DNA of 64,000 bases from Corallococcus sp. NCRR (GCF_026965535.1 NZ_CP114039.1:7907461-7971460); one strand, 5' to 3'; positions 27,850-47,801 are shown, counted from the first letter of the stretch. Translations and numbers: made by a program. The notes: generated by a model not told the origin, from the sequence alone.

Positions 27850-27972
27850 GCGGTGAAGGGGCCCGAAACCGGGGCACCGCAGGCTAACCCGCCACGTCCC
27901 TGCGCACCGCCGTCCGCGCACGGCCCGTCACAACCCGGCCGGAGAGCGGCCAGCGGGCCACGCGCCCGGACT

Positions 27973-29244
<1,272 letters not shown>

Positions 29245-29376
29245 CTACCTGCACCTGGGGGCGGGGGGTGGGAAGGCGGCATTTCCGGGGCGGCCCGGCG
29301 GTTACATTGGGTCCTTCCGTTACCGATTCACCGCGCGTCTTGGGTCGCCGCGCCATTTCCGTTACAAGCCGCCGCC

Positions 29377-31045: not shown

Positions 31046-31149
31046 GCAGGTGTCAATCACCCTCACGGGGGATGCAATCGCAGCGAGGAGTGCGCCAGAA
31101 CCTGGGGTGCCAGGTCGTCCCACCCATGACGACCCGGGGGGGCACCTCC

Positions 31150-34100
31150 ATGACTCCGAACGACTCGGTCCTGCTGAAAGAGCTTCAGCAGCAACGCACC
31201 CGGTTGCTGGATCTGAGCGCAACCAACCGACTCCTCCATTTCAAGCACACGGCCCGGACGTCGCTGCGCATTGTGGATGAATTGCCAGGTGTCGTCTTCG
31301 AGCGCCTGAGCAACCACCGCGCGCTCACGTTCCTGCCGGTGATGCCGCCGGCGCATGCCTCCAAGGAAGAGGAGGACGTCGACCCCGCCGCCGCGACGGT
31401 GGTGTTTTCGATGACGACGGAGGAAGCCCCCAGCAAGGACGCCCGTCAGAATCTGGTGCTTCAACAGGCGAAGAAGTTGGGCATTGATACCCGGTATGAG
31501 CTGCCCAAGGCGCTCCCGGCAGAGAGCGGCAGCAATCCTCGCAAGCACCAGGACCGCCACCTCCAGACGTTGTACTTCCCGGAGGATCTGGAGAGCCACT
31601 TGCACCGTATCCAGGGCCTCGCGCAAACGGCCATCCAGGAGACCGGAGCCAACCTGCTCCACTTCGTCTTCGGGTTCCTGCGCTGGTACGAGTCTGGCGA
31701 CACGCGGCAGGAGAAGCCTCGCAGCGCTCCGCTCGTGCTCATGCCGGTGAGCCTCAAGCGCGGTCAGGCGCACCCGGAGACGCAGGTCCACGCCTACGAA
31801 GTGGACTACAACGAAGGCGAGTCCATCGAAACGAACCTCACGCTCCAGGAGAAATTGCGGCAGGAATTCGGCATCACGCTGCCGGCCTTCTCCGCGGACG
31901 AGGGCCTGGAGGCGTACTTCGACAAGGTGACGACGCTGCTCAAGGGACTGCGTCCTGGCTGGAGCCTGGAGCGGCAGGTGACCCTGACGCTGCTGTCCTT
32001 CGGGCGGCTCCTGATGTGGCGGGACCTGGAGCCTACCCGCTGGCCCCAGAACAGTCCCATGCTGGCGAACCCGCTCGTCCGAACACTGATGGGAGGACAG
32101 GCGCAGGCGAACGAACCTGGTGGAGGTGGCGGGGGCAGTCGGGAACGCCGGAGCGAGGTCTACGACCTGGATTCACCCGAGGTAAATCCTCCGCCGCTCA
32201 TCACGGACGCCGACAGCAGCCAGCACAGTGTGTTGGTGGACGTACTCCGAGGCGAAAACCTGGTGGTCCAGGGGCCGCCTGGCACCGGGAAATCACAGAC
32301 CATCACCAACCTCATTGGCGCGGCGCTGGCGGCGGGCAAGACCGTGCTGTTCGTCACGCAGAAGCTGGCGGCGCTGGAGGTCGTCTCGCGCCGCCTCCAG
32401 CAGGCGGGGCTCGGCGAGTTCTGCCTGGAGTTGCATAGCCACAAGACCCAGAAACAGCAGTTCATGGAGGATCTGCGTCGACGACTCAACCTGGATACGA
32501 GCGCGAGCGCCCCTCGCCCTCTCACCGAACAGGTCTTGAGCGCGGCAGGCATCCTGCGCGCGCACACCGAGCGAATGCACAAGCCTTTCGGGACGCTCGG
32601 CATGTCACCGCACGACGTGTTCTGGAAGGTCAGTCGTGCGGAGTCAGAGTTGGGGGAAGCGGTCGTGGAGTTGGAGGGCCTCCGCTTCGAGGGCGCTGAA
32701 GGTATGTCCCCCCTTGCGCTGGCGGAGGTTCGCAACGCGGTTCGGAACCTCGCGGCGCAACTGGGGGATGTTCGCCGCGTCGCGCCCATCCTCAGTGCCC
32801 ACCCATGGGCGGGTGTAACGAACGATGCGCTGACCGACAAGGACCGCCAGACACTCATTCAACGGATCGCCACCTGGGAAGAGTCCGCCCTACTTCTAGA
32901 GAAGGCGCTGGCGACCTTCACCGTCCGCACGGGCGTCACGCCCAGGTCGAGCGCGCTCGCGGTGGATGCGCTGGTCTCCAACATCCGGGTCCTGCCGCAG
33001 CTTCCGGAGGGTGCTCCCGCAACGCTGGTCCCTGCCCTACTCGATTCGACGCAGCGCCAGGGATTACGAGTCCTGCTCGATGCCATCGAAGCGGTCCAGA
33101 AGCAGTGGGCGGGGTTGGAGGCGGGCTGGCGAGCCCAGGAGGACCTGACCGTGACCGCGCTGCGCGACGCGGAAGCCGTCCTCGACATTACCCTGCGCCT
33201 GCTCTCGCCTGACACCACGCTCGTCACCCTGACGCGCGCGCACGAAGCGGTGGAAGCAGCGGCCCGAGGCCTGGGGCAGGCTCGCCGGTTCGTTGCCGAA
33301 GTGGCCTTGCGCCTGGAGGTCGACGTCACGCTCTGGACGCCTCAACAAATCCAGATTTTCGCCCGCGTCGTCGAGGCCATGGCCGCCCTGGACGACACCA
33401 CTTTGGAGTGGCGGGACCCACGCTGGCTTGAGCGCGAAGCCGAGGAGGCACTTCGGAAAGCCGGGGTGACGTGCACGGAATTGAAAGAGCAGGGCCGGGC
33501 GCTCGCGGTGCGCTTCATGCCCGAGCTTGTCCCTCCCCTCGCAACACTCAAGTCCCATGCCGTCGCGGTTTCGACCGCGCCATTCATCCCCTGGTTCTCG
33601 GGCGCATGGCGTGCCGCGCGGCGGGACTTCCAGGCCATGGCTCATGGTGTCCGTCCAACAAAGCCCGTACTCATCCAGGGATACAACGACCTGCTGGCAC
33701 ATTACGCGGCACGGGAGCGGTTCCAAGAGGACGCGACCCTGAAAGAGACCCTGGGTGCCCGCTTCCAGGGAATCGAGACGCGTTTCGATCGAATCCTCTC
33801 GTGGTTGGACACATACCGGAACATCGACGCATTGCTCCTCCCAATGGGCGAGCGAGGTCTGGAGCTGCGCCGCGCGGTGTTGGAGCGTTCCCCGAGCCAG
33901 TGGCGAGATGCCCTGGCGAGGGTCCGCGCGAAGAGTGATGAACTTCCCCAGGTCCGCGACGTGAGTACCTCCGTGCAAGAGGCCTCGACGCGCATGGGGC
34001 TGCCGCACGCGCCCTGGAACACCGAGCCCTGCGGAAAGGCCCAGGACAGTCTCGACGCCCTGCTGAAGCACCTGGGTAAGGTTCTGCATTGGGCACGGAA

Positions 34101-36348
34101 GGGAGATGCCCCGCCGTCCCTGCCCCTCTCTCAACTCCAGGGACAGTTGCGCAGGGTGCGCGAGGCGTGCGGAGCCGCGGAGCGGCTGGAAGCTCACGCT
34201 CCCGCAGCGGCCCTGCCGGGGGTGGCCTACCAGGGCCGGAAAACCTCACTCGCGGGTCCCCGAAGCGTTCTTCGCCATGTCGATGCCCTCCTGGCGGCGC
34301 CGCTGCCGGAAGGTCTGGCGGAGTGGCTGCTGCGAGAGGACACGCCACGAAGGCACGCGGACCTGCATGCGGCCGCGAACGAGTTGGAGACCGGGCTCAC
34401 TGCCTATAGACAGTCCGCCGCCCAAGCCTGGGAACTGGGAAGGATGGCCCCGGGCACCTGGGAGGAACTCGCCACCGAGTCCCCGCTCCAATCGACGGTC
34501 TTGCGCCTGCGTCAGGCCCGAAGCCAGTCCGCGACGCTTCCGGCCTGGTGCGCGTATCAACGGCAGCGGCGCGCCGTCGCGCGAGCGCGGAGCACCGCCG
34601 GGTTCCTGGAGCGCGTCGACACACGCCCCGGTCTGGAGCCGGAACAGCTGGTCTCCGCCTTCGACGCTGTCTTCTTCCGCTCTCTGGCGGAAGCCATCCT
34701 GCGAGACCAACCAGAGCTCGATCAATTCACTGGCGCCATCCATGCATCCCAGCGAGAGGAGTTCGCACGCTTGGACACGCATTGCATCGAAAAGCAGGGC
34801 CGCTACCTGGCGCGTCAACTCAGCCAGCGTCCGGTTCCTCCCGGCGTGTCCTCGGCGAAGGTAGCGGGCATGACGGAGACTCATCTTCTGAGGCACGAGC
34901 TGGGAAAGAAGCAGCGGCACCTCCCCATCCGTGAACTGGTGGCACGCGCCGGCAGTGCGCTCCAGACGCTGATGCCGTGTTTCATGATGGGTCCGCAGTC
35001 TGTCGCCCAGTACCTGCCCGCCGGACAGCTGACCTTCGACCTGGTGGTGATGGACGAGGCCAGTCAGATGCGCCCCGAAGATGCCCTGGGAGCCATTGCC
35101 CGAGGAAAGCAGTTGGTAGTGGTGGGCGACCCGGAGCAACTCCCTCCCACCAGCTTCTTCGCCCAGATGGAGCAAGAGGACACAGACTCCAACGACGAGA
35201 CAGGACACGAGGCCGAGGGCCCGTCCTTCCTGGAGGATTCAGAGAGCATCCTCACGGCGGCGGCGGAGCGGTTCCCCATGCGCATGCTGCGCTGGCATTA
35301 CCGTTCCCGGCACCCCTCACTGATCGCCTTCAGCAATCGCGAGTTCTACAACGGTGACCTCATCACCTTCCCTGCACCGGGTGAGCAACTGGAAGGGTTG
35401 GGACTGCGCTTCCATAAGGTGGACGGAGGACTGTACGAGTCCAACCGCAACGTCCCCGAGGCTCGTGAGGTGCTCGCGAAGGTGAAAGAGCACGCGCGTA
35501 CACACCCCGAGCAAAGCCTGTTGGTCGTCACGTTGAACTCGAAGCAGCGGGATCTCATCGACGATCTGGTGACGGCCGAGGAGAAGAACGACGCGGACCT
35601 CCGGGCCTTCCTGGCGAGGTGGGAGAAGTCACCCATGCCTTTCGACGTGAAGAACCTGGAGAACGTCCAGGGCGACGAGCGCGACGCCATCTTCGTGTCG
35701 GTCACGTTCGGTCCGGACAAGAACGATCGCTTCCGGATGAACTTCGGACCCATCAACCAGGCGGACGGATACCGCCGGTTGAACGTCCTTTTCACGCGGG
35801 CGCGCTGCGCACTCACGGTGTTCGCGTCCTTCGACCCCTCGGACCTCAAGGTCCAGGAGAGCAGTCCCCGTGGGATGCGCGTCCTGCAACGGTACCTGTC
35901 CGAAGCCAAGGGAGAGAAGGTTGCGCACGGCGTGGGGAGCGGCCGTCCACCAGACTCCGACTTCGAAATCGCCGTCGCGAAGGCGCTCGCGGCGCGGGGC
36001 TTCGAGGTGGTTCCGCAGGTAGGTGTCGCGGGCTACTTCATCGACATGGCCCTCCGGCATCCCCAGCAATCGGGCCGATACATCCTCGGCGTCGAGTGTG
36101 ACGGCGAGCGGTACCACTCGTCGCGCTCCGCACGGGACCGGGATCGGCTCCGGGACCAGGTGTTGAAAGGCCTGGGGTGGAAGCTTCACCGCATCTGGTC
36201 CACGGATTGGTTCCGCTCGCCTTCAGAAGAGGTCGCCCGGATCGTCGCGCACGTTGAGGAACTCCTTCGGGAGGAGGCGGCTGGGTTGCCAGCCGTGGCG
36301 CGAGAAGAGTCCCCTGTGGATCAGCCAATGCGCGCCGTCAGCGCCTGA
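31150..36348 (+). CDS. DUF4011 / SF1 (Upf1-like) helicase / DUF3320 (Vsr/DUF559-like nuclease) giant protein; Hhe-like defence helicase-nuclease
   Basis: N-terminal DUF4011 (LLKELQQQRTRLLDLSATNRLLHFKH); Walker A VVQGPPGTGKSQTI; DEAS LVVMDEASQM; VVVGDPEQLPP; motif VI LNVLFTRARCALTVF; C-terminal Vsr-like IAVAKALAARGFEV...ILGVECDGERYHSS...RDRLRDQVLKGLGWKLHRIW; modestly lower GC than flanks. Confidence 0.82.
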   Translation: MTPNDSVLLKELQQQRTRLLDLSATNRLLHFKHTARTSLRIVDELPGVVFERLSNHRALTFLPVMPPAHASKEEEDVDPAAATVVFSMTTEEAPSKDARQNLVLQQAKKLGIDTRYELPKALPAESGSNPRKHQDRHLQTLYFPEDLESHLHRIQGLAQTAIQETGANLLHFVFGFLRWYESGDTRQEKPRSAPLVLMPVSLKRGQAHPETQVHAYEVDYNEGESIETNLTLQEKLRQEFGITLPAFSADEGLEAYFDKVTTLLKGLRPGWSLERQVTLTLLSFGRLLMWRDLEPTRWPQNSPMLANPLVRTLMGGQAQANEPGGGGGGSRERRSEVYDLDSPEVNPPPLITDADSSQHSVLVDVLRGENLVVQGPPGTGKSQTITNLIGAALAAGKTVLFVTQKLAALEVVSRRLQQAGLGEFCLELHSHKTQKQQFMEDLRRRLNLDTSASAPRPLTEQVLSAAGILRAHTERMHKPFGTLGMSPHDVFWKVSRAESELGEAVVELEGLRFEGAEGMSPLALAEVRNAVRNLAAQLGDVRRVAPILSAHPWAGVTNDALTDKDRQTLIQRIATWEESALLLEKALATFTVRTGVTPRSSALAVDALVSNIRVLPQLPEGAPATLVPALLDSTQRQGLRVLLDAIEAVQKQWAGLEAGWRAQEDLTVTALRDAEAVLDITLRLLSPDTTLVTLTRAHEAVEAAARGLGQARRFVAEVALRLEVDVTLWTPQQIQIFARVVEAMAALDDTTLEWRDPRWLEREAEEALRKAGVTCTELKEQGRALAVRFMPELVPPLATLKSHAVAVSTAPFIPWFSGAWRAARRDFQAMAHGVRPTKPVLIQGYNDLLAHYAARERFQEDATLKETLGARFQGIETRFDRILSWLDTYRNIDALLLPMGERGLELRRAVLERSPSQWRDALARVRAKSDELPQVRDVSTSVQEASTRMGLPHAPWNTEPCGKAQDSLDALLKHLGKVLHWARKGDAPPSLPLSQLQGQLRRVREACGAAERLEAHAPAAALPGVAYQGRKTSLAGPRSVLRHVDALLAAPLPEGLAEWLLREDTPRRHADLHAAANELETGLTAYRQSAAQAWELGRMAPGTWEELATESPLQSTVLRLRQARSQSATLPAWCAYQRQRRAVARARSTAGFLERVDTRPGLEPEQLVSAFDAVFFRSLAEAILRDQPELDQFTGAIHASQREEFARLDTHCIEKQGRYLARQLSQRPVPPGVSSAKVAGMTETHLLRHELGKKQRHLPIRELVARAGSALQTLMPCFMMGPQSVAQYLPAGQLTFDLVVMDEASQMRPEDALGAIARGKQLVVVGDPEQLPPTSFFAQMEQEDTDSNDETGHEAEGPSFLEDSESILTAAAERFPMRMLRWHYRSRHPSLIAFSNREFYNGDLITFPAPGEQLEGLGLRFHKVDGGLYESNRNVPEAREVLAKVKEHARTHPEQSLLVVTLNSKQRDLIDDLVTAEEKNDADLRAFLARWEKSPMPFDVKNLENVQGDERDAIFVSVTFGPDKNDRFRMNFGPINQADGYRRLNVLFTRARCALTVFASFDPSDLKVQESSPRGMRVLQRYLSEAKGEKVAHGVGSGRPPDSDFEIAVAKALAARGFEVVPQVGVAGYFIDMALRHPQQSGRYILGVECDGERYHSSRSARDRDRLRDQVLKGLGWKLHRIWSTDWFRSPSEEVARIVAHVEELLREEAAGLPAVAREESPVDQPMRAVSA

Positions 36349-36361
36349 ACAGGAAATATCC

Positions 36362-37927
36362 ATGACAACGATCATCGCCATTGGCCTGGGCGTTTTGGGC
36401 CTTTTGCTCCTGGGCTTGTTGCTGCGGACGCGAAGCCAACTCAAGGCGGTCCAGGCACGATTCAAGCCCATCCTGGACCTGGAGGCCGAACGACGCCGGC
36501 TCGCGGAGGAGTTGACGCAAGCCCGCACTGACGCAACCGCCGCGATGGCTGCGGAACAGAAGCGGGTCCAGGATGAGTTGGCGAAGTCCCGGAGCGAAGC
36601 GGACAATGCGCTGGCTGCGGAGCGGAAGCGGGTGGAAACCGAGCTCGCCCGCGCCAAGGCGGACGTAGAGCAGGCCATCTCCGCGGAGCAGGGCCGGGCG
36701 AAGGCGGAGTTGAACCGGATCCGCGAAGAAACGAACCGGACGACGCAAAGCGCGACGCGCGCCATGGAGGAGGCGGAAGCACGTCGAAAGCAGGCGAACA
36801 CCGAGCGGACCAGCCTGGAAACAGGCCTTGCCCGATTGAAAGCCGAATTGAAGGCATTGGAGGAAGAGGAGGTTCTGCTCACCTTCGGCTTCTACAAACC
36901 GGTGTACGCGCTGGCGTCGGTCAAGGAGTACGAGGACCGCTTGGAGAGGATCCGCGAATCGCAGAAGCAGATGCTGAAGAACAAGGAAGCAGCCACATGC
37001 TCCATTCAGTGGGAGGTGAATGGGAGCAAGGCGGAAGGCAAGAAGCAGATTGACCGGACCTTGAAGCTGATGCTCCGGGCGTTCAATGGCGAGGCGGACG
37101 CATGTGTGGCGAAGGTCTCCTACAAGAACGTGAAGGCCATGGAGACGCGTATCGAGAAGGCAGCTGCCGCCATCAATGGCCTCGCGGAGATCCAGCAGTG
37201 CGTCATTGCCAGGCGCTACGTCAAGCTCAAGGTCGAAGAGTTGATGCTCGCGTATGAGTACGAGGAGAAGGTGCAGCAGGAGCGTGACGAGCAGCGCCGG
37301 ATCCGGGAGCAGATGCGTGAGGAGGAGGCCGCCCAACGCGAACTGGAAAAGGCGAAACTGGAAGCGGAGCGCGAAGCGAAGCGCGACGCGGAGGCCCTGG
37401 CCAAGGCGAAAGCGGACTACGAGCAGGCCAAAGGCTCAGAGCAGCAGAAGTTGATGGAGCGCATCGCGGAGCTGGAGCGCCGTGTGGCGGAGGACCTGGA
37501 GAAGCAGCGGGCCATCTCCCAGGCCCAACTCACCCGGACAGGGCACGTCTACGTCATCTCCAACATCGGCTCGTTCGGGGAGGGCGTGTTCAAGATGGGC
37601 ATGACCCGCCGGCTGGTGCCCCAGGACCGCATCGACGAACTGGGAGACGCCTCGGTGCCGTTCGAGTTCGACGTTCACGCCATCATCCGGACCTCGGACG
37701 CCCCAGCCCTGGAAAACGCCCTGCACAAGGCCTTCGCGAACCGGCGCGTCAACCGCATCAACGAGCGCAAGGAGTTCTTCCGCGTCAACCTGGATGAGAT
37801 CGCGGAAGCGGTCCGCAAGCACCACGGCGAGTTTGAATTGACCCGGGTGGCCGAAGCTGCGGAATACCGGAAGACATTGGCACTCCAAGAGGAGGAACAG
37901 GGTCGACCCGGTGAGCGGGCCGCATGA
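36362..37927 (+). CDS. Membrane-anchored coiled-coil protein with DUF4041 and a C-terminal T5orf172 (GIY-YIG-superfamily) domain
   Basis: N-terminal TM MTTIIAIGLGVLGLLLLGLLL; long E/R/A/K-rich coiled coils; DUF4041 (LLTFGFYKPVYALASVKEYEDRLERIRESQ...); T5orf172 (GHVYVISNIGSFGEGVFKMGMTRRLVPQDRIDELGDASVPFEFDVHAIIRTSDAPALENALHKAF); starts 14 nt after the helicase stop. Confidence 0.78.
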   Translation: MTTIIAIGLGVLGLLLLGLLLRTRSQLKAVQARFKPILDLEAERRRLAEELTQARTDATAAMAAEQKRVQDELAKSRSEADNALAAERKRVETELARAKADVEQAISAEQGRAKAELNRIREETNRTTQSATRAMEEAEARRKQANTERTSLETGLARLKAELKALEEEEVLLTFGFYKPVYALASVKEYEDRLERIRESQKQMLKNKEAATCSIQWEVNGSKAEGKKQIDRTLKLMLRAFNGEADACVAKVSYKNVKAMETRIEKAAAAINGLAEIQQCVIARRYVKLKVEELMLAYEYEEKVQQERDEQRRIREQMREEEAAQRELEKAKLEAEREAKRDAEALAKAKADYEQAKGSEQQKLMERIAELERRVAEDLEKQRAISQAQLTRTGHVYVISNIGSFGEGVFKMGMTRRLVPQDRIDELGDASVPFEFDVHAIIRTSDAPALENALHKAFANRRVNRINERKEFFRVNLDEIAEAVRKHHGEFELTRVAEAAEYRKTLALQEEEQGRPGERAA

Positions 37928-39701
37928 ATTCGGCCCCGCCTACACTTCTGGTAGCGTTCACCTCTCAATGAGTTCCAACCCGTTTTCGTTTCCTGGGGAT
38001 GCGCTCCCCGACGCTGTCATTTCTGCCTCTAAAACTCGGAAAATCGCGTTCCTGGTAGGCTCTCCCTTGTCGACACAGGAAAGAGCCGACGCGCCCCAGG
38101 TTCCTGGCGTGAGCGCGATGGTGGCTCTGATCCGCGAGCACCTTCCGGCCGAAGCCCAAGCAAAATTTGACGCAGACCGACTGCATAACCAATCCAACGA
38201 GTACCAATGGGCCATGCGCTTCCTGCAGGGCCGAAGCAACAAAACGGCCGCCGAGAAAGTCGTACGAGAAGCTGTCCTCCGGGCACGGCTGGATCGACAA
38301 AAGGATGGCGCTGCCACGGACGAACAGCTTGACCAAGACTATCGTGGATGGGCGCTGCCGCCTGCGACGGAGCACCTCGGCAAACTCCTGGTGGAGAGGG
38401 CCGACAAGTTTGGTCCTGTCTTGACTACAAACTTCGACCCCCTCATCTCCGCGTCAATCAAGATGGCTGGCGGGAATTTCCATCGCACCCTCGTAGTCAA
38501 CGACAGTCCCTTCGGGCATACGACGCCGTCCTCCAACTCGACACACATCATTCATCTGCACGGGTACTGGCACAATTCGCCCACGCTACATACCAGCGCA
38601 CAGATCGCTCGTGATCGTGATCAGGTCGCCGCAGAACTCGTTCAGATCCTTCAAAACCACACACTCATTGTCGTCGGATACGGCGGCTGGGATGACATCT
38701 TCACCAAGACGCTCTCAGCGATCAACGCCAACCGGCACAATGACGTCGACATTCTCTGGGCATTCTACGAAACCGAAGCAGACCATCTGCTTGAGGCTCG
38801 CTATCAGCATCTATTCAGCAAGGTCACCAACTTAAGAGGCAATACGGGCCTTCGCTGCTACAGCGGAATCAATTGCCACAAATTCTTCCCTGAACTGCGG
38901 AGGCAGTTTGACGCATCCATTGCCCCGCAGACGCTCCCTCCCAGCACAATCCGACCGCCACCGCAGCCATCCTCCACAAGGGCCCCAAGCTCCAAAGCAT
39001 CTGAGCCAGTCGCCTCGACATCCTCAAGTGCGGCGAAGCCACCCGCGCCTGTGCCCCCCGTGTCGGACCGTCCCGCCTCCCCTTCCATTCCGAAAACAGA
39101 CGGCTCGGGCAGCCCTCCGAAATCGGGCTCCAGGAGGATCCTTACGTTTGCGGCAGCCGCGCTGATTGCCGGCGGGATGGCAGCAGTCTGGCCATCCCCG
39201 AGCAAAGACGTCAGCAATGACGTCTTCGTCGTTCAGACTCCGCGCAATCTGAGGCCTGTCCAGCCGCAGCCTCCTGCGGCTTACACTCCGTTCCCATCTC
39301 CCGCCGGTGGAACACTCCGGACCGCCCGCCAGCAACACCAGGTCGTACCTGCTTCGGACGCCGAACGTGGGACTCGCGTCTCGCAGCTTCCCAGGGGCCG
39401 TTACGCCTTTGTCCCGATGAGCGCTGTTCCCACCTATAGCGCGGACACATCCATCTATGGCCCGATCCAGGAGGGAATCGAGCTTCATCGCGCCCTCTCG
39501 GATGGGTCCCTGTACCTCGTGGGCTACGCGGATGCTCCAACCATCACGGCCCTGGGATATCCGAACCCTGCTCCCATCGTCATCACCCCCACGCCCAGCA
39601 ACAGAAGGACGCAGGTCGCGAGCATTCCCGTGACCCGGATGGCCACCGCGGAAGTTCGCATGGACAAAGGCACCCGCGTGTTGGTCCTCCACCTCAACTA
39701 A
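37911..39701 (+). CDS. SIR2_2-family (defence-type sirtuin-like) protein with Pro/Ser-rich linker, single TM helix and C-terminal domain; GTG start at 37911 overlaps the upstream gene (alternative ATG 37968)
   Basis: SIR2_2 motifs KIAFLVGSPLS, VLTTNFDPLISAS, HIIHLHGYWHN, LIVVGYGGWDDIF; low-complexity PPQPSSTRAPSSKAS... linker; TM ILTFAAAALIAGGMAAVWP; about 190-aa C-terminal region. Confidence 0.72.
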   Translation: MSGPHEFGPAYTSGSVHLSMSSNPFSFPGDALPDAVISASKTRKIAFLVGSPLSTQERADAPQVPGVSAMVALIREHLPAEAQAKFDADRLHNQSNEYQWAMRFLQGRSNKTAAEKVVREAVLRARLDRQKDGAATDEQLDQDYRGWALPPATEHLGKLLVERADKFGPVLTTNFDPLISASIKMAGGNFHRTLVVNDSPFGHTTPSSNSTHIIHLHGYWHNSPTLHTSAQIARDRDQVAAELVQILQNHTLIVVGYGGWDDIFTKTLSAINANRHNDVDILWAFYETEADHLLEARYQHLFSKVTNLRGNTGLRCYSGINCHKFFPELRRQFDASIAPQTLPPSTIRPPPQPSSTRAPSSKASEPVASTSSSAAKPPAPVPPVSDRPASPSIPKTDGSGSPPKSGSRRILTFAAAALIAGGMAAVWPSPSKDVSNDVFVVQTPRNLRPVQPQPPAAYTPFPSPAGGTLRTARQQHQVVPASDAERGTRVSQLPRGRYAFVPMSAVPTYSADTSIYGPIQEGIELHRALSDGSLYLVGYADAPTITALGYPNPAPIVITPTPSNRRTQVASIPVTRMATAEVRMDKGTRVLVLHLN

Positions 39702-39707
39702 CAATCA

Positions 39708-40370
39708 ATGACACTCAACAATCGAATCCTCATTCTTGGGCTGACGTCGGTTATCCTGCTAGCGGGCTGTGGGCCCGAGGACTTCAGCCCGGGCCCCATC
39801 ACGGAAGACCCGCCACTCGAAGAAATTTGTACTTCGGCGAACTGCGCAGGCTGCTGCGATCCAACCACGAACAAGTGCGTCGAAGTTCGCACCAACGATG
39901 CATGCGGAGTCACCGGCACCCAATGCACGAAGTGCGCGACCGGGACCATCTGCCATCCATCACAGCAGCAGTGCTACACCCCCACCATCCGCACGAAGAT
40001 CCAGCCTCTGCGCGCCCAGATCGCGCCGCAGGATCCTGCCGACAACAGTGATTGGGATGTGGATGGCTCGCCGCCGGATGTCGTGATCAAGCTGTCCTGC
40101 CCCAACGCGCAGCCTGCGCCCCCATCCGAGGAAGTTGAAAGCTTCACTCCCACCTGGACGAAGGGGGCATGCGACGTCCTGAGCACCGATCTGCTTTCGG
40201 CCCCCATCCAGTTCAGCGTCATCGACGTCGACACCCTCTTTGACGACCCGATTGCGTCGGTGCAGTACCAGGTGACTCGAGCCGACACTGACCGTGGCGT
40301 CCTGGAGTTCACGGGGTCCGGTGCGTTGCTCTCCGTGGCTTTCCAGGTCACCACCTACTACGCCGAATAG
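39708..40370 (+). CDS. Cys-rich lipoprotein (paralogue of 47184..47801)
   Basis: Lipobox ILLAGCGP; Cys-rich N-terminal module (CTSANCAGCCDPTTNKCVEV...CGVTGTQCTKCATGTICH...CYTP); shared motifs DWDVDGSPPDVVI and VQYQVTRAD with the 47184 gene; starts 7 nt after the SIR2 gene. Confidence 0.58.
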   Translation: MTLNNRILILGLTSVILLAGCGPEDFSPGPITEDPPLEEICTSANCAGCCDPTTNKCVEVRTNDACGVTGTQCTKCATGTICHPSQQQCYTPTIRTKIQPLRAQIAPQDPADNSDWDVDGSPPDVVIKLSCPNAQPAPPSEEVESFTPTWTKGACDVLSTDLLSAPIQFSVIDVDTLFDDPIASVQYQVTRADTDRGVLEFTGSGALLSVAFQVTTYYAE

Positions 40371-41488
40371 ACGGATACCTCGATCCGCCGCCAGCGTTGC
40401 TGGATGCTGGCGGCCATGTGCTTGCGGAGGTTTGCCATCCAGCGCTGACACGTCCTGGTCGCATCCTGCTCCCCTGCATTGAAGCCCAGTTCCAGGTCGA
40501 GGGCCCAATGCAGACTGGTGATGGCCTCGAGCCGCAGCTCATCCGGGGCCTTGAGCCGCGAGCGGGCCGCTGCCTCGAAGCATGGGTCCAGGAGGAGTGC
40601 CGCGATCGTGAGTTGAGGGCACGCCCCGCTTCGCCGGTCGATCAGCTCCCACAGTGCCGCCAGTGGCTCCGGACGCGCTCCGCCAATCAGCATCGCGACA
40701 ACGGCCAGCTTGTGGAAGATGGGATGTGTCTCACGGAAGAGCGCGAGGATTTCAGCATCCACGCCAGGACTCATCTCCACCGCTGCTTCCACGTGCAGCA
40801 CCAGCTCCTTACGGTCCAACCATCGGAGCGCGCGCGGGCCGGGGTCGAGAAGGAGGGCATCCATGAACGATGGGTACCCGCCATACTCCTGATAATAGCG
40901 CACACCTGCATTGCCCAGTCCCGCCCGCGCGTAGGTGCGAGGCCGGTCCGACAGAACGCCCGCGACACACGCTTCCTCCATGTCACAGCAAGACAACTCC
41001 GCGCCTCGGAGATTGGCGCAGCGCAGGTCCGCCTTCATCAATGTCGCTGCGGTCAAACGGGCGCCCTGAAGCCGGACGCGGCGGAATGAGCCGCGCACCA
41101 GGTTCGAAGCCGTGAGGGTCGCCCCTTCCATGGAGGCATCGTCCCAGCAGGTGCCCATCGCGACACACGCCATCAAACTGGCGCGCTCCAATCGCGCCCA
41201 GGACAGCGAGGCACCTGACAACGTGGCGAAGTCGAGCCGCGCCTCTTGGAGCCCGCAGTCGTCCAGACGGGCGCCATCGAGCCGTACATGGACGAGATCC
41301 GCGCCCGGTAGCTCTTCTTGTGTGAGGTCGATGCCTCGGAGATCCCCCACTTGGGGCCCCAGTGCATCCGCTCCCGGAAAGCCCTTGAGGACTTCACGCC
41401 AGGGCCCCTGGAATCCCGAGGCGAGCAGTCGCTCGCGCCGATGCAAGCCATCAGGTGTGAGCCAGCGCTCTGTCAGTTCGGGCAGCAT
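40358..41488 (-). CDS. Pentapeptide-repeat protein
   Basis: Many tandem A(D/N)LxG-type pentapeptides (ADLVHVRLDGARLDDCGLQEARLDFATLSGASLSWARLERASL...; ADLRCANLRGAELSCCDMEEA). Confidence 0.8.
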   Translation of the reverse strand: MLPELTERWLTPDGLHRRERLLASGFQGPWREVLKGFPGADALGPQVGDLRGIDLTQEELPGADLVHVRLDGARLDDCGLQEARLDFATLSGASLSWARLERASLMACVAMGTCWDDASMEGATLTASNLVRGSFRRVRLQGARLTAATLMKADLRCANLRGAELSCCDMEEACVAGVLSDRPRTYARAGLGNAGVRYYQEYGGYPSFMDALLLDPGPRALRWLDRKELVLHVEAAVEMSPGVDAEILALFRETHPIFHKLAVVAMLIGGARPEPLAALWELIDRRSGACPQLTIAALLLDPCFEAAARSRLKAPDELRLEAITSLHWALDLELGFNAGEQDATRTCQRWMANLRKHMAASIQQRWRRIEVSVYSA

Positions 41489-41591: not shown

Positions 41592-43043
41592 ATGTACCCG
41601 ATTCGCCGCCTTCTCGTTCGTGGACCGTGGTTGTTCGACCTCCGACCGCATCGGCTCATCGCCTTCCACGGAGCTGAAGGCATGCGCCGGGAGGTAGAAG
41701 GAGACGTGCCGGAGTACTCGTCCGCGCCCGTAGTGCTCGCCGCGCTCAATGAGTCAACGGACGTCTGGGTGGGAAGCGGGGATCGGCGTGTCTTCTCCGT
41801 GAGCACCGATGTGAGCGCATCCGTTCAGGCCTTTCCGAGGGAATGCTTCGATCTCACCTCCGATGGGAACCGGCTCATTGGAACGATGGTGGACGGCGCC
41901 CTCAAGCTGACCACCGTCTTCACGACCGATGGGTCCGGGCAGCGTTGGGAGCCCATGACTTTGCCCAAGCCCGTGTCCACCACGCACGGGTATGGCTATT
42001 CCGAGGGACGCCCTCCCCGTCAGTCCCCAGATGGGGCGTTCCTCGACACGAGCCCCTTTGGCATCACCGTCGTGGAGAAGGGCCGGGGCCGCGTCTACGT
42101 GCTCCGCTCGGGGGCGGCTCAGCCGGAGGGCGCGCTCCAGGTGGAACCGGGCCATGAGCAGGACATCTGGCGGGCCCTGGCCACTTCCCAGGGTGTGCTT
42201 CTCCTGCTCGTCATCGACTACCGGCAGACGGTGCTTCTTCACTTCGCGCTCGACGGCACCCTACTCGGCTCCCTCCCGTCCAACGATGAGGATGAGGACG
42301 AAGATGACGTTGAACTGACCTGGGGCGGTAAAGGGGTGTGCGTTCTCGACTCGGAGCGGGCGCTCCTCTTCGTGCAGGACAAGACCCTCCTGGTATCCCT
42401 GCCCGGGCTCCAGGTGCTTGAGACGCTCGCGGGGGAGTGGCCCCAATTCGTGTCCGTGGCGCCCGCTGGGCCAAACCGGTGGTGGGTGGGGTCCGAGGAC
42501 AGTGACGCGCTCTTCCTGCTCACCGCCGAGCCCGGACAGCCCTTGCGCCTCGACACCTCGAACCGTCCGGTGAGCCCGGGCGCGCCGCTCATGCACGTGG
42601 GCTACAAGACACCCACGCTCCACTGGACCGAACACACCTCGGCACCGCTGACTGTGTCCGCGCCCGTGTCCGAGACGTGGCGGGCGGTGGTGCGCAATGA
42701 CGGGACCGCGTGCGAGGCGGTACGGATCCGCGTGTCCGGGGTGCTCATCGGTGCTCGTGTGGTGGACGTGAGCGTGCGGTATCGCGGTCAGCCACTCCCG
42801 ATGGAGGAGGAGCACCGCGTGAACGTCGTGGGGGTTACCGGCGGCCTGGAGGCAGGGGCCACCGCGGAGCTGGAGATGACCTTCAAGCCCCGGAGCGAGG
42901 GCTCAGGACCGCTGACCATCACCGTCGAGCCATGCTCCTGGCAGTCTCAGGGCAAAGAGTGGCAGTGGGACAAAGAGCCGTCTCGCGTCCTCGTGGTGAC
43001 GGGCCATTCGGCATCCGCTCAATTCCTGCTCACGGTGGAGTAG
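41592..43043 (+). CDS. Hypothetical protein (possible beta-propeller-like N-terminal half plus Ig-like C-terminal)
   Basis: 483-aa ORF with ATG at 41592, consistent coding bias, no recognisable catalytic motif. Confidence 0.5.
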   Translation: MYPIRRLLVRGPWLFDLRPHRLIAFHGAEGMRREVEGDVPEYSSAPVVLAALNESTDVWVGSGDRRVFSVSTDVSASVQAFPRECFDLTSDGNRLIGTMVDGALKLTTVFTTDGSGQRWEPMTLPKPVSTTHGYGYSEGRPPRQSPDGAFLDTSPFGITVVEKGRGRVYVLRSGAAQPEGALQVEPGHEQDIWRALATSQGVLLLLVIDYRQTVLLHFALDGTLLGSLPSNDEDEDEDDVELTWGGKGVCVLDSERALLFVQDKTLLVSLPGLQVLETLAGEWPQFVSVAPAGPNRWWVGSEDSDALFLLTAEPGQPLRLDTSNRPVSPGAPLMHVGYKTPTLHWTEHTSAPLTVSAPVSETWRAVVRNDGTACEAVRIRVSGVLIGARVVDVSVRYRGQPLPMEEEHRVNVVGVTGGLEAGATAELEMTFKPRSEGSGPLTITVEPCSWQSQGKEWQWDKEPSRVLVVTGHSASAQFLLTVE

Positions 43044-44199
43044 CGCGAACCTTCTCGGGCTCGGGTGCGGCGCTCATCCTCCAGAGCAGGGCGCCTCCCC
43101 CAATGACGACTCCCAGGCCCACTGCCGCCGCGAGGATCCATCCTCGTCCCAGGCGGGGCCGTGCCTGGCTCTCCGGGCCGTCCGGAGCCGGGGCAATGAC
43201 GCTCGGATCGTCGCTCGGTGAGACCTGTTGGACGAGTTGGGCCACCTGTTTCGGTGTCACCGGCTCCCTCACCGAACGGATGAAGGCCTCCAGGTCCTTC
43301 CGGAACGCGTGGCAGTCCGGATACCGCTCGTCCCGATCCTTCGCGAGCGCCCGGGCGAGGATGGCTCGTAGGGCATCGGGCAGGTCTGGCCGGTGCTGCT
43401 CGGCAGGGACGATGGGCTCAGTCGCGACGACCCGAAACAAGTCCCAGTCGGACGTGGACTCAAAGGGCCTACGCGTGGTGAGCAGTTCGTAGAGCACCAG
43501 ACCCAGCGCGTAGACGTCCGCCCGCCGGTCCAACGGCCTGCCCATGACCTCCTCGGACGCCATGTACCTGTACTTGCCTAGGTTGGGCATGGGGTGTTCG
43601 GGTGTCCACCGGATCCGGAAATGCTCGATGCCGAAGTCCACCACCTTCGTCGTCCCCTGGCGCGACAGGAGGATGTTGTACGGCCGGATGCAGCGGTGGA
43701 TGAGCCGCAGCGGCTGGTTCGTCTCGGGGTCGGTGAGGTCGTGGGCATAGGCGAGCCCCTCGCAAGCTTGCGAGATGATGCGCGCGCACAGCGTCGCTGG
43801 CAGGGTCATCCGCTGGGCCACCACGTGATTGATCACCCCGCGCAGGCTGGGCCCATCAACGTGCTCTCTCGCGAGAAAGTACGTGCCTTCCGCCTCACCT
43901 ACATCAAAGACCTTCCCGAGGTGCGGGTGCGTGAGCCGGGCGGCGTCCCTCGCCGTGTCGAGGAACATCTCCGGGACATCCACCTGCTCCGCCATGTCCG
44001 AGCGGAGGCACTGGAGCACCAGCGTCTTCTCGACGCCCCGCGGGCCGGCGGCCGTGGCCAGATGGTCCTCGATGATGCCTTCGGAGAGCAGGCGGATGCG
44101 CTGGTATTTGCCGACTTGGGATGTCACGGGGCGTATGAATAGCAGACCATGACCCGCTACCGCTTCCTTGGGCTTCTGCTGGCGCTGCTGCCTCTCCAT
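43030..44199 (-). CDS. Degenerate Ser/Thr protein kinase (pseudokinase) with C-terminal TM anchor
   Basis: Kinase fold recognisable (DFG present: VVDFGIE; C-lobe YALGLVLYELL) but no Gly-loop, beta3 Lys absent (VLQCLR), catalytic loop HRCIRPYN instead of HRDLKPxN, SEE instead of APE; TM GWILAAAVGLGVVIGGGALLW; ATG at 44199 (alternative GTG at 44127); the track ORF upstream extension is antisense. Confidence 0.6.
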   Translation of the reverse strand: MERQQRQQKPKEAVAGHGLLFIRPVTSQVGKYQRIRLLSEGIIEDHLATAAGPRGVEKTLVLQCLRSDMAEQVDVPEMFLDTARDAARLTHPHLGKVFDVGEAEGTYFLAREHVDGPSLRGVINHVVAQRMTLPATLCARIISQACEGLAYAHDLTDPETNQPLRLIHRCIRPYNILLSRQGTTKVVDFGIEHFRIRWTPEHPMPNLGKYRYMASEEVMGRPLDRRADVYALGLVLYELLTTRRPFESTSDWDLFRVVATEPIVPAEQHRPDLPDALRAILARALAKDRDERYPDCHAFRKDLEAFIRSVREPVTPKQVAQLVQQVSPSDDPSVIAPAPDGPESQARPRLGRGWILAAAVGLGVVIGGGALLWRMSAAPEPEKVRATPP

Positions 44200-45900
44200 G
44201 TCAGCGCTGTCCCCATTCCAGCGGAGCAGTTGGTGGGAACCTGGGGCAGTGAGCGCGTCCTCGGACCTCAGGTTCGCGGAGAGTTGACACTGGTTCGTGA
44301 AGGAACGACGTGGCGAGCATGCATCGCGGGCTTCGACGTCCCGGCCCAGGTCGAGGGCCGCAAGGTGTCCGTCGTCTTCCCAGGCGGCGAACTCCGAGCG
44401 ACGTTGGCGGAGAACGGCCAGATCATCTCGGGGCACTGGATCCAGCCGCGCGTGCTCATGAGCGGCATGAAGTTCGCCTCTCCCGTGGAGCTGCGCGCGC
44501 TTCAGCCGAGGGTCTGGCGCGGCAACGTGGCTCCGCTGGAGGACCGGTTCTCGCTGTACCTCGTCGTCCAGAAGCAGCCTGACGGCTCCGTGACGGCATT
44601 CATCCGCAACCCGGAGCGGAACTTCGGCAACCGCATGCTGTTCCGCGTGGAGCTCCAGGACCGCACGGTCCGGCTCACGTCCACCAAGGACAACACCCGT
44701 ATCGAAGGCACGTTCGACGCGCAGTCCGGACGGCTGTCCCTCCCCTACCCTCCCTTCGACACGATGTTCGACTTCACCCGCCGGGACCGTTCGCAGGCCG
44801 TGGGTCTCTACTCCCGCACACCTGCTCCCGGCCCCTACGCCTACCAAAAGCCCATCGCGGAGGATGACGGTTGGACCACGGCATCCCCTACCGACGTCGG
44901 CATGGACATCCAGCCGCTCCAGCAACTCGTGCAGCGCATCCTCGACCAGGAACCGAGCCCGGAATCCGTCCCCGCCATTCAGGGCCTGCTCATCGCGCGC
45001 CATGGAAAGCTCATCCTCGAAGAGTACTTCCAGGGCTTCGACAAGGAGCGTCCCCATGACCTGCGGTCCTCCTCCAAGTCCTATGCGTCCCTGCTGATTG
45101 GCATTGCCCTGGACCAGGGCGCCCCCTTCACCGTGGACACGCCCGTCGCGTCACTCTTCCCCGAGTACAAGGGCAAGCTCTCCAACCTGGACGCGCGCAA
45201 GCGCAAGCTCACCGTCGCTCACCTGATGACCATGGCCACGGGTCTGGCCTGTGACGACGACGATCCGGATTCACCTGGCAACGAGGACCGGCTCGAGGAC
45301 TCCGTACCGGATTGGTACAAGTACACGCTAGACCTCCCCATGGTCCGCGCTCCCGGCGGTGGGAAGGCCGTGTACTGCTCCGCGAACATCAACCTGCTCG
45401 GGGGCATCCTCCACAACACCACCCGCACCTGGATCCCCGAGTTCTTCACCCAGAACGTCGCCACGCCCCTCCAGATGCGCGGCTACCACCTGGACCTGAT
45501 GCCCGACGGCGAGCAGTACCTGGGCGGCGGCATCTACATGCGTCCCCGCGATGCCCTGAAGCTCGGGCAGCTCTACCTCTCCGGCGGCACGTGGAATGGG
45601 AAGCGCGTGGTGAGCCAGCGATGGGTGGAACGCTCCGTCGCGAAACAGGCGACGATGCCGGATGGACGAACCTACGGCTACACGTGGTGGCGCCATGAGC
45701 TTCGCGTCGGTGACCGGGTGTATTCGCAGTACGAAGCCAGCGGCAACGGTGGCCAGCTCGTGATGGTCGTCCCGGAGCTGGACCTCGTCGTGCTGTTCAC
45801 CGCGGGCAACTACAACCACGTCTCCCTCTGGCGGAAGTTCCGCGAGGAGCTCCTGCCCCGGTACGTCATGGCCGCGGTCACGGCTCCCCCGCGGCCCTGA
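44149..45900 (+). CDS. Beta-lactamase-family serine hydrolase (class C / PBP-like) with N-terminal extra domain
   Basis: Signal peptide MTRYRFLGLLLALLPLHVSA; SxxK motif SSSKSYASLLIGIAL; YxN-like; starts 50 nt inside the divergent pseudokinase 5' end. Confidence 0.8.
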   Translation: MTRYRFLGLLLALLPLHVSAVPIPAEQLVGTWGSERVLGPQVRGELTLVREGTTWRACIAGFDVPAQVEGRKVSVVFPGGELRATLAENGQIISGHWIQPRVLMSGMKFASPVELRALQPRVWRGNVAPLEDRFSLYLVVQKQPDGSVTAFIRNPERNFGNRMLFRVELQDRTVRLTSTKDNTRIEGTFDAQSGRLSLPYPPFDTMFDFTRRDRSQAVGLYSRTPAPGPYAYQKPIAEDDGWTTASPTDVGMDIQPLQQLVQRILDQEPSPESVPAIQGLLIARHGKLILEEYFQGFDKERPHDLRSSSKSYASLLIGIALDQGAPFTVDTPVASLFPEYKGKLSNLDARKRKLTVAHLMTMATGLACDDDDPDSPGNEDRLEDSVPDWYKYTLDLPMVRAPGGGKAVYCSANINLLGGILHNTTRTWIPEFFTQNVATPLQMRGYHLDLMPDGEQYLGGGIYMRPRDALKLGQLYLSGGTWNGKRVVSQRWVERSVAKQATMPDGRTYGYTWWRHELRVGDRVYSQYEASGNGGQLVMVVPELDLVVLFTAGNYNHVSLWRKFREELLPRYVMAAVTAPPRP

Positions 45901-47183: not shown

Positions 47184-47801
47184 ATGAAAGTCCTCGGCTG
47201 GTTGTTCGTCCTGATGTGCGCGCTGTGGCTCCCTGCATGCGGTCCCTACGACTGCACCCCGGAGAACTGCGCGGACGGCTGCTGCTCCGCGCTCAATGAG
47301 TGCATCCGCTACCGGAGCGACTCGGAATGCGGCCCCAATGGCGGCCTCTGTGAAGCCTGCGGGGCAGGCAGTGTCTGCCGGCTGGACCAGCGCGCCTGCT
47401 ACACGGGCGTGATGCGCACCTTCATCCAGCCCCGGTACGCCACCATCGCGGACTTCGACCCGGACACGGGCGAGGACTGGGATTCCGATGGCTCGCCGCC
47501 GGACGTCGTCGTGGAGATGAACTGCCCCTCCGCTCCCGAACGCACCCGCACCGAGGAAGACGAGAGCTGGGACCCCGAATGGAGGACCGGCGGCTGCCAG
47601 GTCATCACGTCCAACCTCCTGCGCTACCCGCTCGAAATCTCCATCTTCGACAACGACGACTACACCTTCGATGACGAGTTCGGCGGCCTCTCCTACCAGG
47701 TCACCCGCGCAGACCTGAACCTGGGCCGCATCGAGCTCTCCATCCCGCCCATCGTGAAGACGCTCGTCTTCGACCTGAGCCACAACTACGCGCCGCAGTG
47801 A
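47184..47801 (+). CDS. Cys-rich lipoprotein (paralogue of 39708..40370)
   Basis: Signal/lipobox LWLPACGP; NCADGCCSALNEC...CGPNGGLCEACGAGSVC...CYTG; DWDSDGSPPDVVV; SYQVTRADLNLG. Confidence 0.58.
   Translation: MKVLGWLFVLMCALWLPACGPYDCTPENCADGCCSALNECIRYRSDSECGPNGGLCEACGAGSVCRLDQRACYTGVMRTFIQPRYATIADFDPDTGEDWDSDGSPPDVVVEMNCPSAPERTRTEEDESWDPEWRTGGCQVITSNLLRYPLEISIFDNDDYTFDDEFGGLSYQVTRADLNLGRIELSIPPIVKTLVFDLSHNYAPQ

Follow-up and report, generated by a model that had tools for sequence, protein, structure and literature searches.

Candidate two-gene modules of Myxococcota that pair a membrane-spanning SIR2 protein, or a counterpart with another effector head, with a C2 lipoprotein

Introduction

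To our knowledge, almost all characterised NAD+-depleting bacterial immune proteins sense infection in the cytoplasm. In the SIR2 defence proteins ThsA and DSR2 an asparagine and a histidine of the SIR2 motifs are needed for NAD+ hydrolysis, and SIR2 and TIR effectors of other systems are activated by oligomerisation. This work concerns a SIR2 protein of Corallococcus sp. NCRR with a different predicted layout, encoded by gene A in a stretch of 64,000 nucleotides (GCF_026965535.1, NZ_CP114039.1:7907461-7971460) that is called the window throughout. Gene A carries a SIR2 domain, a linker, one transmembrane (TM) helix and a C-terminal domain, X, and is followed by gene B, which encodes a lipoprotein with a C2 fold. 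With moderate confidence, and from sequence comparison, we read the two as a conflict or immune module specific to Myxococcota, in which a cytoplasmic effector would be controlled from the periplasm as a form of envelope surveillance.

An earlier note on this DNA had instead joined gene A to the gene upstream of it, gene 1, as a membrane-localised sensor-effector pair. Gene 1 has a well-described relative of its own. PD-lambda-1 is said to have been reported by Vassallo in 2022. Saxton et al., Nature 2026 (PMC13190303), gave it its present name, SNIPE; it is a self-sufficient inner-membrane GIY-YIG nuclease in E. coli that cuts phage DNA during injection, a single-gene defence against siphoviruses with E414 as the catalytic glutamate (PMC13190303). 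The canonical layout is TM helix, DUF4041 and GIY-YIG; of some 500 homologues, 59% have one TM helix predicted within the first 70 amino acids, and conservation of the N-terminal region is poor (PMC13190303). No partner gene is reported for SNIPE.

Results

Five kinds of head on a constant membrane part with a constant partner gene

Genes A and B are separated by 6 nt in the window.

37968..39701, + strand: gene A, SIR2 domain, linker, TM helix and X domain, 577 amino acids (Pfam, homologue alignment, hydropathy)
39708..40370, + strand: gene B, lipoprotein of 220 amino acids with a signal peptide, lipobox LLAG before C (C21), a ten-cysteine region (41-89) and a C2 domain (90-220)

X follows a single TM helix at the C-terminus of gene A, and directly 3' lies the C2 lipoprotein gene. 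An open reading frame (ORF) of 212-227 codons homologous to gene B was found directly 3' of gene A in all Corallococcus and Myxococcus loci and in loci L085 and L086, with gaps of -4 to 127 nt over 12 measured loci; the value of -4 is an ATGA overlap in L086. The same order was seen in L002, L083/L084, L087, L096, L098 and L091, a short contig on which only the A/B pair is visible. These loci sit in different neighbourhoods: those of Corallococcus, Myxococcus with L085, L086/L087, L094, L095/L096, L097/L098, and L099. A fatty-acid desaturase gene and carB flank the gene A homologue of Myxococcus (L081-L084), which is 35% identical and has the same architecture. The metagenome contig L085 shares the desaturase gene and the HSDR_N gene 5' of gene A with Myxococcus and has a differing downstream gene; the upstream genes of L086 are divergent. 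A metagenome scan with gene B gave 4 loci, including L091; the degenerate-looking L093 was dropped. A genome scan with the full-length gene A alignment was dominated by SIR2-STAND loci and returned 4 full-length loci. Two proteins, P0016 and P0017, had no contig placement and stand outside the locus comparison.

The N-terminal domain in front of the TM helix and X (TM-X) is exchangeable. By Pfam, the heads are SIR2_2, TIR_2 (7 clusters), PNP_UDP_1 (7, one with EAD5), Metallophos (2) and an FAD/NAD Rossmann domain (4). EAD5 is a domain described in conflict systems of multicellular bacteria (PMC8195603), and Kaur et al. 2021 make no mention of C2 domains or lipoproteins. All five heads match anti-phage effector models in PADLOC. 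The Rossmann head matches Lamassu LmuA (E 9.2e-91) and is presumably the FMO-type LmuA variant; the PNP head matches the CBASS PN-superfamily effector (E 1.1e-28) and the Metallophos head the CBASS endonuclease effector (E 3e-22). The TIR head matches the PDC-S66, ThsB and Aga-TIR models, and the SIR2 head the pAgo-associated SIR2. Matches of gene A to the pAgo, Aga and LmuA models cover only its SIR2 core, residues 156-305. Non-SIR2 versions were located as follows.

L094: TIR-TM-X
L095/L096: PNP-TM-X, in a Myxococcaceae metagenome-assembled genome (MAG)
L097/L098: Metallophos-TM-X
L099: FMO-TM-X, in Archangium

In each non-SIR2 head type (one locus per head) a protein of the gene B family, with lipobox, ten cysteines and C2 domain, is encoded 3' of the TM-X gene. 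Because B stays unchanged while the head varies, B must relate to the constant TM-X part. A role for gene B as an antitoxin specific to one head was rejected for the same constancy of B alongside varying heads. As the sequences read, the unit is two genes: A, with a variable head, a TM helix and X, and B, the constant lipoprotein. That gene A works with gene B, and not with gene 1, is the best explanation of these arrangements.

The neighbours of the PNP version include one or more sitAI6 cassettes, each a DUF2380 lipoprotein toxin with a double_CXXCG immunity protein (PMC12077181).

L095 3882-5318 and 8569-9336; L096 640-1401: PNP module neighbours, sitAI6 cassette(s) and an Imm52 gene

In L097 (3041-4256) the Metallophos module is followed by a 179-residue protein with a WHHIISK motif and a 228-residue CxxC protein, a small putative toxin/CxxC pair.

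Start codon and SIR2 domain of gene A

The earlier note had started gene A at a GTG (37911) overlapping the stop of gene 1 and had taken the two genes to be translationally coupled. Full-length annotated homologues (564-580 amino acids) align from M20 of the ORF that opens at this GTG (the GTG-ORF). The equivalent ATG in four other Corallococcus species (L001-L004) is preceded at 6-36 nt by an in-frame stop, and no start codon lies between the two. Because homologues align from M20 and in-frame stops precede the ATG, the start of gene A is placed at ATG 37968, which gives 577 amino acids and leaves 40 nt after the gene 1 TGA (37925-37927). The GTG start was rejected on this evidence and the overlap is refuted; a gap separates the genes where coupling had been proposed.

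37928..37967, + strand: spacer of 40 nt from the gene 1 stop to the gene A start, GTG 37911 unused (in-frame stops in L001-L004, homologue alignment)

The NCBI record P0001 (100% identical, unclassified Corallococcus) has 527 amino acids and starts at M70 of the long ORF, which drops the first Rossmann strand, KIAFLVGSPLS, of the SIR2 fold. Start-codon errors therefore go both ways: the choice of the longest ORF made a false overlap, and the public record truncates the SIR2 fold.

38028..38900, + strand: SIR2 domain, predicted cytoplasmic, with motifs KIAFLVGSPLS, TTNFDPL and HLHG (Pfam SIR2_2 core, conservation)
38901..39137, + strand: Pro/Ser-rich, disordered linker, predicted cytoplasmic (composition; length and sequence vary among homologues)
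39138..39194, + strand: single TM helix ILTFAAAALIAGGMAAVWP, GTG-ORF residues 410-428, with KSGSRR on its N side (Kyte-Doolittle (KD) mean 1.79)
39306..39698, + strand: domain X, predicted periplasmic, 131 amino acids, signature LRxQHxV ... LPxGxYGF ... (I/F)E(L/V)H(R/K) ... LVGY ... IPxxR (conservation, AlphaFold2)

The Pfam SIR2_2 match scores 44.8 bits (cutoff 24.5). TTNFDPL (N155 and D157, numbered from ATG 37968) and HLHG (H198) are invariant in 18 sequences; in GTG-ORF numbering these residues are N174, D176 and H217. The Rossmann glycine G50 (GTG-ORF numbering) is conserved in at least 90% of the 18, and the motifs align with those of the SIR2-like protein FAM118B. Retention of the motifs suggests that the head is a catalytically competent SIR2. 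Outside the family it is closest to the SIR2 heads of NB-ARC/NACHT/TPR proteins, which are 35-41% identical in the SIR2 half. The 80 residues 341-420 of the GTG-ORF, covering most of the linker and part of the TM helix, include 18 Pro, 17 Ser and 12 Ala. The SIR2_2 domain, Pro/Ser-rich linker and single TM helix described in the earlier note are thus borne out.

Some SIR2 domains are true deacylases, and the Myxococcus loci are flanked by housekeeping genes. On these grounds gene A might encode a non-toxic regulatory sirtuin anchored in the membrane, with deacylase or ADP-ribosyltransferase activity, that adjusts physiology to an envelope signal. Such a role is barely plausible: the Pfam match is to SIR2_2, the SIR2-like family, the nearest relatives are heads of NB-ARC/NACHT proteins, and TIR, PNP, metallophosphoesterase or LmuA-type domains can take the place of the head, which fits a generic toxic output and not a task specific to deacylases.

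A sister family of SIR2-linker-TM proteins (P0023, P0039, P0066, P0092 and P0112; loci L088/L089) ends in another C-terminal domain, with the motif YWxALNxxDYxxAWxLLSPxFQ. Since this family carries a different C-terminal domain, membrane-spanning SIR2 proteins, as predicted, are not confined to the X family and extend beyond it. L088, the single sister locus with a downstream flank, has no C2 lipoprotein; it adjoins a phage-type integrase and lies behind a secreted 317-residue protein.

Membrane topology of gene A and properties of domain X

In 36 proteins with five kinds of N-terminal domain, a hydrophobic segment occupies the same place, 22-80 amino acids before the C-terminal domain. Its KD mean is at least 1.55 in 33/36 and weaker (1.19-1.43) in 3/36; the values are 1.79 in the window protein and 1.55-2.30 in 16 relatives. 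Homologue alignment places Pro-rich spacers on both sides of the gene A helix, and no signal peptide was found on the gene A protein. Over the 15 residues flanking the helix on each side, the 36 proteins together have 117 Lys plus Arg N-terminally and 63 C-terminally (N>C in 28, equal in 6, C>N in 2). By the positive-inside rule, this excess on the head side over the X side predicts a cytoplasmic head and a periplasmic X. Domains that consume NAD+ or nucleotides need a cytoplasmic location.

Domain X is a mixed alpha/beta domain, confidently folded in AlphaFold2 (pLDDT 90.5, pTM 0.84), with no family match in Pfam, NCBIfam or PADLOC. The earlier note had proposed a C-terminal domain of about 190 amino acids, likely outside the cytoplasm. 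A conserved region is present there and predicted to lie outside; its size needed correction, to a Pro-rich linker of about 37 amino acids and a folded domain of 131. A profile search of 1.8 billion representative proteins found 618 relatives of X at E<=1e-3 and 133 at E<=1e-10. Longer relatives share a common plan, in which the N-terminal domain is followed by a linker and then by a single hydrophobic helix, 22-80 amino acids ahead of a C-terminal X. One protein, P0138, has a signal peptide and three tandem copies of X. Because P0138 places X behind a signal peptide, X can apparently fold outside the cytoplasm. P0163 (L100 409-834), a stand-alone X, is encoded just 5' of a gene whose N terminus resembles 2-oxoglutarate dehydrogenase E1.

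The same data bear on a simpler view, that the segment does not span the membrane. X would then be cytoplasmic, gene A a soluble or peripheral SIR2 protein, and the adjacency of gene B physically meaningless. The modest hydropathy of the window protein and of three relatives would fit this, as would the many X proteins that lack any TM helix or signal peptide. In some X proteins with an N-terminal anchor the helix is followed by K/R, suggesting an inward X. We consider it very improbable, given that in 33/36 proteins with five heads the segment recurs at one position with a KD of 1.55 or above and a positive-inside bias to the head side, that Pro-rich spacers flank the gene A segment on both sides, and that the constant partner gene B has the lipobox and ten conserved cysteines of an exported protein.

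A membrane-spanning SIR2 with a predicted outside domain had been called unusual, and indeed no description of one was found in PADLOC v2, Pfam, NCBIfam or targeted full-text searches. Likewise, targeted full-text searches, whose coverage of the literature is incomplete, gave no description of a system joining a SIR2/TIR-TM-periplasmic-domain protein to a lipoprotein.

Gene B encodes a lipoprotein with a C2 fold

The N-terminus of the gene B protein is MTLNNRILILGLTSVILLAG followed by CGPEDF. It fits the lipobox pattern [LVI][ASTVI][GAS]C, the cysteine of which is invariant in 18 sequences, suggesting that the product is exported and lipid-anchored. In M. xanthus, lysine at the +2 position matters for the location of lipoproteins; gene B has no lysine there and its product is probably located in the outer membrane. 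Of the ten cysteines, nine are invariant and one is kept in at least 90% of the 18 sequences.

Residues 90-220 form an eight-stranded beta-sandwich of the C2 fold. Gene B itself scores below threshold for Pfam C2 (PF00168), a paralogue in the window reaches 20.5 bits (cutoff 22), and some family members carry a precomputed match. Among the acidic residues, D117 and D124 are invariant, and D119, D173, D175 and D180 are kept in at least 90% of the 18 sequences. Mapped by eye to the synaptotagmin pattern, they correspond putatively to the residues typical of Ca2+-binding loops. Eukaryote-type C2 domains (cPLA2, synaptotagmin, perforin) differ from gene B, an exported bacterial lipoprotein in which the C2 domain is fused to a ten-cysteine region. 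Searches of Pfam, NCBIfam and PADLOC gave no family assignment for gene B. The family was seen only in Myxococcota (Corallococcus, Myxococcus, Pyxidicoccus, Cystobacter, Archangium and MAGs), and no phage-borne copies were present in the viral contigs scanned.

47184..47801, + strand: gene B paralogue, 205 amino acids, lipobox LPAC, with no adjacent X-domain gene (tblastn 38% identity; Pfam C2 20.5 bits)

Other paralogues that are not preceded by an X-domain gene lie at L001 16497-17078, L003 12542-13141 and L004 11503-12054, and L003 and L004 have an extra copy in tandem directly after gene B.

The properties of gene B invite a second interpretation of a genuine A/B module, in which it would serve kin discrimination or respond to outer-membrane exchange, predation or developmental cell death. 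The module and gene B occur only in Myxococcota, which swap outer-membrane lipoproteins between cells, and by the sorting rule gene B probably encodes an outer-membrane lipoprotein. The PNP version adjoins a sitAI6 cassette and Imm52, L097 has the small putative toxin/CxxC pair 3', and one PNP version bears EAD5, a domain of conflict systems of multicellular bacteria (PMC8195603). Set against these points, the anti-phage genes Hhe and SNIPE precede the module in Corallococcus, each of the five heads has matches among anti-phage effector models, and no traA/traB or sit gene adjoins the SIR2 versions. We regard this as the main rival and as unlikely, though it deserves weight.

Gene 1 is a SNIPE homologue and not a constant partner of gene A

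36362..37927, + strand: gene 1, SNIPE / PD-lambda-1 homologue, a membrane-anchored GIY-YIG nuclease of 521 amino acids (PADLOC, Pfam, published architecture)
36368..36424, + strand: N-terminal TM helix, residues 3-21, TIIAIGLGVLGLLLLGLLL, then RTRSQLK (KD 2.71)
37064..37231, + strand: DUF4041, residues 235-290 (Pfam E 5.9e-21, 74.5 bits, cutoff 27)
37541..37819, + strand: T5orf172 / GIY-YIG-type nuclease domain, residues 394-486 (Pfam T5orf172 E 6.1e-18, 65.6 bits, cutoff 20; MUG113 E 8.4e-18)

Residues 90-514 of the gene 1 protein match positions 50-477 of 496 in the PADLOC PD-Lambda-1 profile (PDLC03977) with E 7.9e-152. The N-terminus is MTTIIAIGLGVLGLLLLGLLLRTRS, with a 19-residue KD mean of 2.71 over residues 3-21, and about 200 amino acids of charged helical sequence lie between the TM helix and DUF4041. 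The order of parts is that of SNIPE: N-terminal TM helix, long helical region, DUF4041 and C-terminal GIY-YIG/T5orf172. Nothing notable differs; the periplasmic stub has 2 residues, and no sequence relation is seen in the N-terminal region, as is reported to be the rule among homologues. The parts named in the earlier note are thus confirmed, and the membrane tethering of both proteins is supported (KD 2.71 for gene 1 and 1.79 for gene A). The layout is not unusual, because TM helix, DUF4041 and GIY-YIG are the norm of the SNIPE family. By these matches gene 1 is an ordinary member of that already known family, and by homology its product may cut phage DNA at injection.

The Corallococcus loci with upstream flank keep one order. 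Hhe, SNIPE, gene A and gene B follow each other in L001, L003 and L004 (tblastn), with ABC-F also 5' in L001 and L004 as in the window; L002 is a short contig with the end of SNIPE, gene A and gene B. SNIPE adjoins gene A only in Corallococcus (window and L001-L004), at one syntenic locus. In Myxococcus and L085 an HSDR_N gene (restriction-enzyme N-terminal-like) takes the place that SNIPE has in Corallococcus.

L081 8760-9977; L082-L084 8768-9976; L085 8639-9877: HSDR_N gene

The HSDR_N gene lies 23-123 nt 5' of the SIR2-TM-X gene and encodes 402-405 amino acids in Myxococcus L081-L084, up to 412 when L085 is included. It was rejected as a known defence gene, having only marginal PADLOC matches (E 0.001-0.008).

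A sensor-effector pair of the SNIPE-like and SIR2 proteins, co-translated as the earlier note proposed, would be consistent with the two genes being same-strand neighbours in five Corallococcus loci (window and L001-L004). The 13, 40 and 6 nt that separate Hhe, SNIPE, A and B make co-transcription plausible, and both proteins would have their place at the inner membrane. The other evidence makes such a pair very unlikely. SNIPE suffices alone in E. coli, and the GTG overlap is gone. The Corallococcus loci with upstream flank share one syntenic position and count as a single evolutionary event. No SNIPE homologue was found in the gene A flanks fetched from Myxococcus, L085 and L086 (up to 10 kb where the contig allows) or at the TIR, PNP, metallophosphoesterase and FMO versions. 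The two proteins also diverge at different rates, with identities across Corallococcus of 83-94% for protein 1 and 46-76% for the gene A protein. SNIPE as a conserved partner of gene A was accordingly ruled out by the loci from other genera. Homologues are not always adjacent, the SNIPE and SIR2 genes standing together only in Corallococcus, and the proposed pair dissolves into a single-gene SNIPE and its neighbour at one locus.

Setting of the genes in the window

The window has a G+C content of about 70%, which dips to 0.58-0.68 at about 30-47 kb; elsewhere it is about 0.67-0.77, bar one kb-window at 0.59. Four tightly packed genes lie on the + strand, Hhe-like, gene 1, gene A and gene B, with gaps of 13, 40 and 6 nt. 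Two separate defence-type units sharing one lower-GC island of the Corallococcus chromosome is the best explanation of this region.

31072..36348, + strand: Hhe-like anti-phage gene with DUF4011, an SF1 helicase and an MTES_1575 restriction-endonuclease-like domain; helicase-nuclease (Pfam, PADLOC)
40358-41488, - strand: pentapeptide-repeat protein, 3' of gene B, kept in L001
41592-43043, + strand: ORF of 483 amino acids without a family, 3' of gene B
43030-45057, - strand: Ser/Thr kinase with a 340-residue N-terminal region, generic PD-T4-6 kinase matches, kept in L001
44149-45900, + strand: beta-lactamase-fold protein with a 280-residue N-terminal region, 3' of gene B

The Hhe-like gene ends 13 nt 5' of gene 1 and matches PADLOC Hhe (E 1.5e-283) and PDC-S37 (E 0). 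Because its scores lie below the NCBIfam cutoffs (Hhe_antiphage 1424.9 against 2000 bits; ProA 1124.7 against 1500), it is classed as a divergent relative of Hhe. Upstream of it, a 1381-residue ORF (26830-30975, +) ends in about 530 amino acids that form a complete ABC-F ATPase (NCBIfam ABC-F 614.8 bits, cutoff 762). The initial 850 or so amino acids have no family match, and this extension is kept in L001 at least from residue 469; the ORF could be a fused ABC-F or an over-long call in high-GC DNA. A scan for promoters and terminators across 30.8-41 kb gave nothing beyond chance level, and no tRNA genes were found in the whole window.

Discussion

Domain order, conservation, head swapping, the constant partner, the C2 fold and the charge bias were computed here, and the functional claims are likewise computational. 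Genes A and B would represent effector-based bacterial immunity with a new sensing part, the heads being known defence effectors. We envisage that the gene B product contacts X in the periplasm, X reaching B by way of the Pro-rich spacer. This contact would be altered by an insult to the envelope, for instance when a phage adsorbs or penetrates or when the outer membrane is attacked in another way, perhaps by way of a C2 domain that responds to Ca2+ or lipid. Gene A molecules would then cluster across the inner membrane, clustering would switch the head on, and loss of NAD+ or nucleotides would bring growth arrest or death of the attacked cell. Phage is a possible trigger, although we would not count on it. 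Tentatively, such modules may be unrecognised trans-envelope immune receptors of myxobacteria, in which a novel-fold X and an outer-membrane C2 lipoprotein as co-receptor sense envelope attack and one TM helix activates an interchangeable death effector.

Several observations weigh against control of the head from the periplasm by X and B. The A/B module was found only in Myxococcota, most non-SIR2 examples are single metagenome contigs, and the Myxococcus loci are flanked by housekeeping and not by defence genes. Paralogues of gene B exist without an X neighbour, and the TM helix of the window protein has only moderate hydropathy. Many relatives of X (P0163 and many of P0160-P0276) are stand-alone proteins of 130-150 amino acids. 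Because many lack a TM helix or signal peptide, X appears to be a general-purpose domain used on both sides of the membrane and not intrinsically periplasmic, and its ligand may be something general. Pairwise distances of X and gene B are correlated (Mantel r 0.85, p 2e-4 for 12 loci; r 0.61, p 6e-4 for nine less-redundant loci), which fits co-divergence and is confounded by shared phylogeny. Contact between B and X is inferred from co-location, the constant-partner argument and this correlated divergence.

If the proposal that X and B govern the head from outside holds, a receptor that reads the periplasm or outer membrane would fire its SIR2 or TIR head before the genome enters or while it does so, and a new sensing compartment would be added to bacterial immunity. 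It would also give a first function to a bacterial C2-domain lipoprotein and to X, a widespread domain without a family (618 relatives). The module is small, two genes with five head versions on one constant sensor, and directly testable in M. xanthus.

Among known systems, SIR2-STAND proteins (NB-ARC/NACHT) are close to gene A in the head, with 35-41% identity, the Asn and His motifs kept and an N-terminal head on a separate sensing part. Pfam finds no P-loop or NB-ARC/NACHT NTPase in gene A, so the SIR2 head is all it has in common with SIR2-STAND (Avs-like). Neither gene A nor its neighbours match ThsA or ThsB in PADLOC, and the C-terminal half of gene A is linker, TM helix and X, which sets it apart from Thoeris. 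It is likewise distinct from DSR2, SIR2-HerA, SIR2-APAZ-pAgo and LmuA-SIR2, its neighbours being SNIPE and a lipoprotein. ThsA, DSR2, SIR2-HerA, SIR2-APAZ/pAgo, LmuA-SIR2 and SIR2-STAND are all cytoplasmic, whereas gene A is predicted to sense through a TM helix and a periplasmic domain with a lipoprotein partner, and it has none of the NTPase, SLOG, HerA, APAZ/pAgo or LmuB partners of other SIR2 defence systems.

Zorya is the nearest defence system in logic, since, as proposed for A/B, it senses the envelope and turns on an effector in the cytoplasm. No gene between 26.8 and 45 kb has a Zor match in PADLOC. A/B differs in having no MotAB-like ZorAB motor, no ZorC/D and no homology to Zorya; its single-pass receptor would bear the effector itself and pair with a C2 lipoprotein.

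By analogy, A/B resembles RcsF-IgaA and NlpE-CpxA, in which a lipoprotein partners an inner-membrane protein and an outside domain controls cytoplasmic output, that output in A/B being an immune effector. Like Toll-like receptors, TIR-TM-X would link an external sensor to an internal TIR through one TM helix; its domains run in the opposite order, with the head N-terminal, and there is no relation in sequence or fold. None of these signalling systems is homologous to A/B, and in place of their kinase or transcription cascades A/B would have an NADase or nucleotide-degrading head as its output. If the proposed topology and control are right, A/B would be a bacterial counterpart of the Toll-like receptor logic of outside sensor, single helix and inside TIR.

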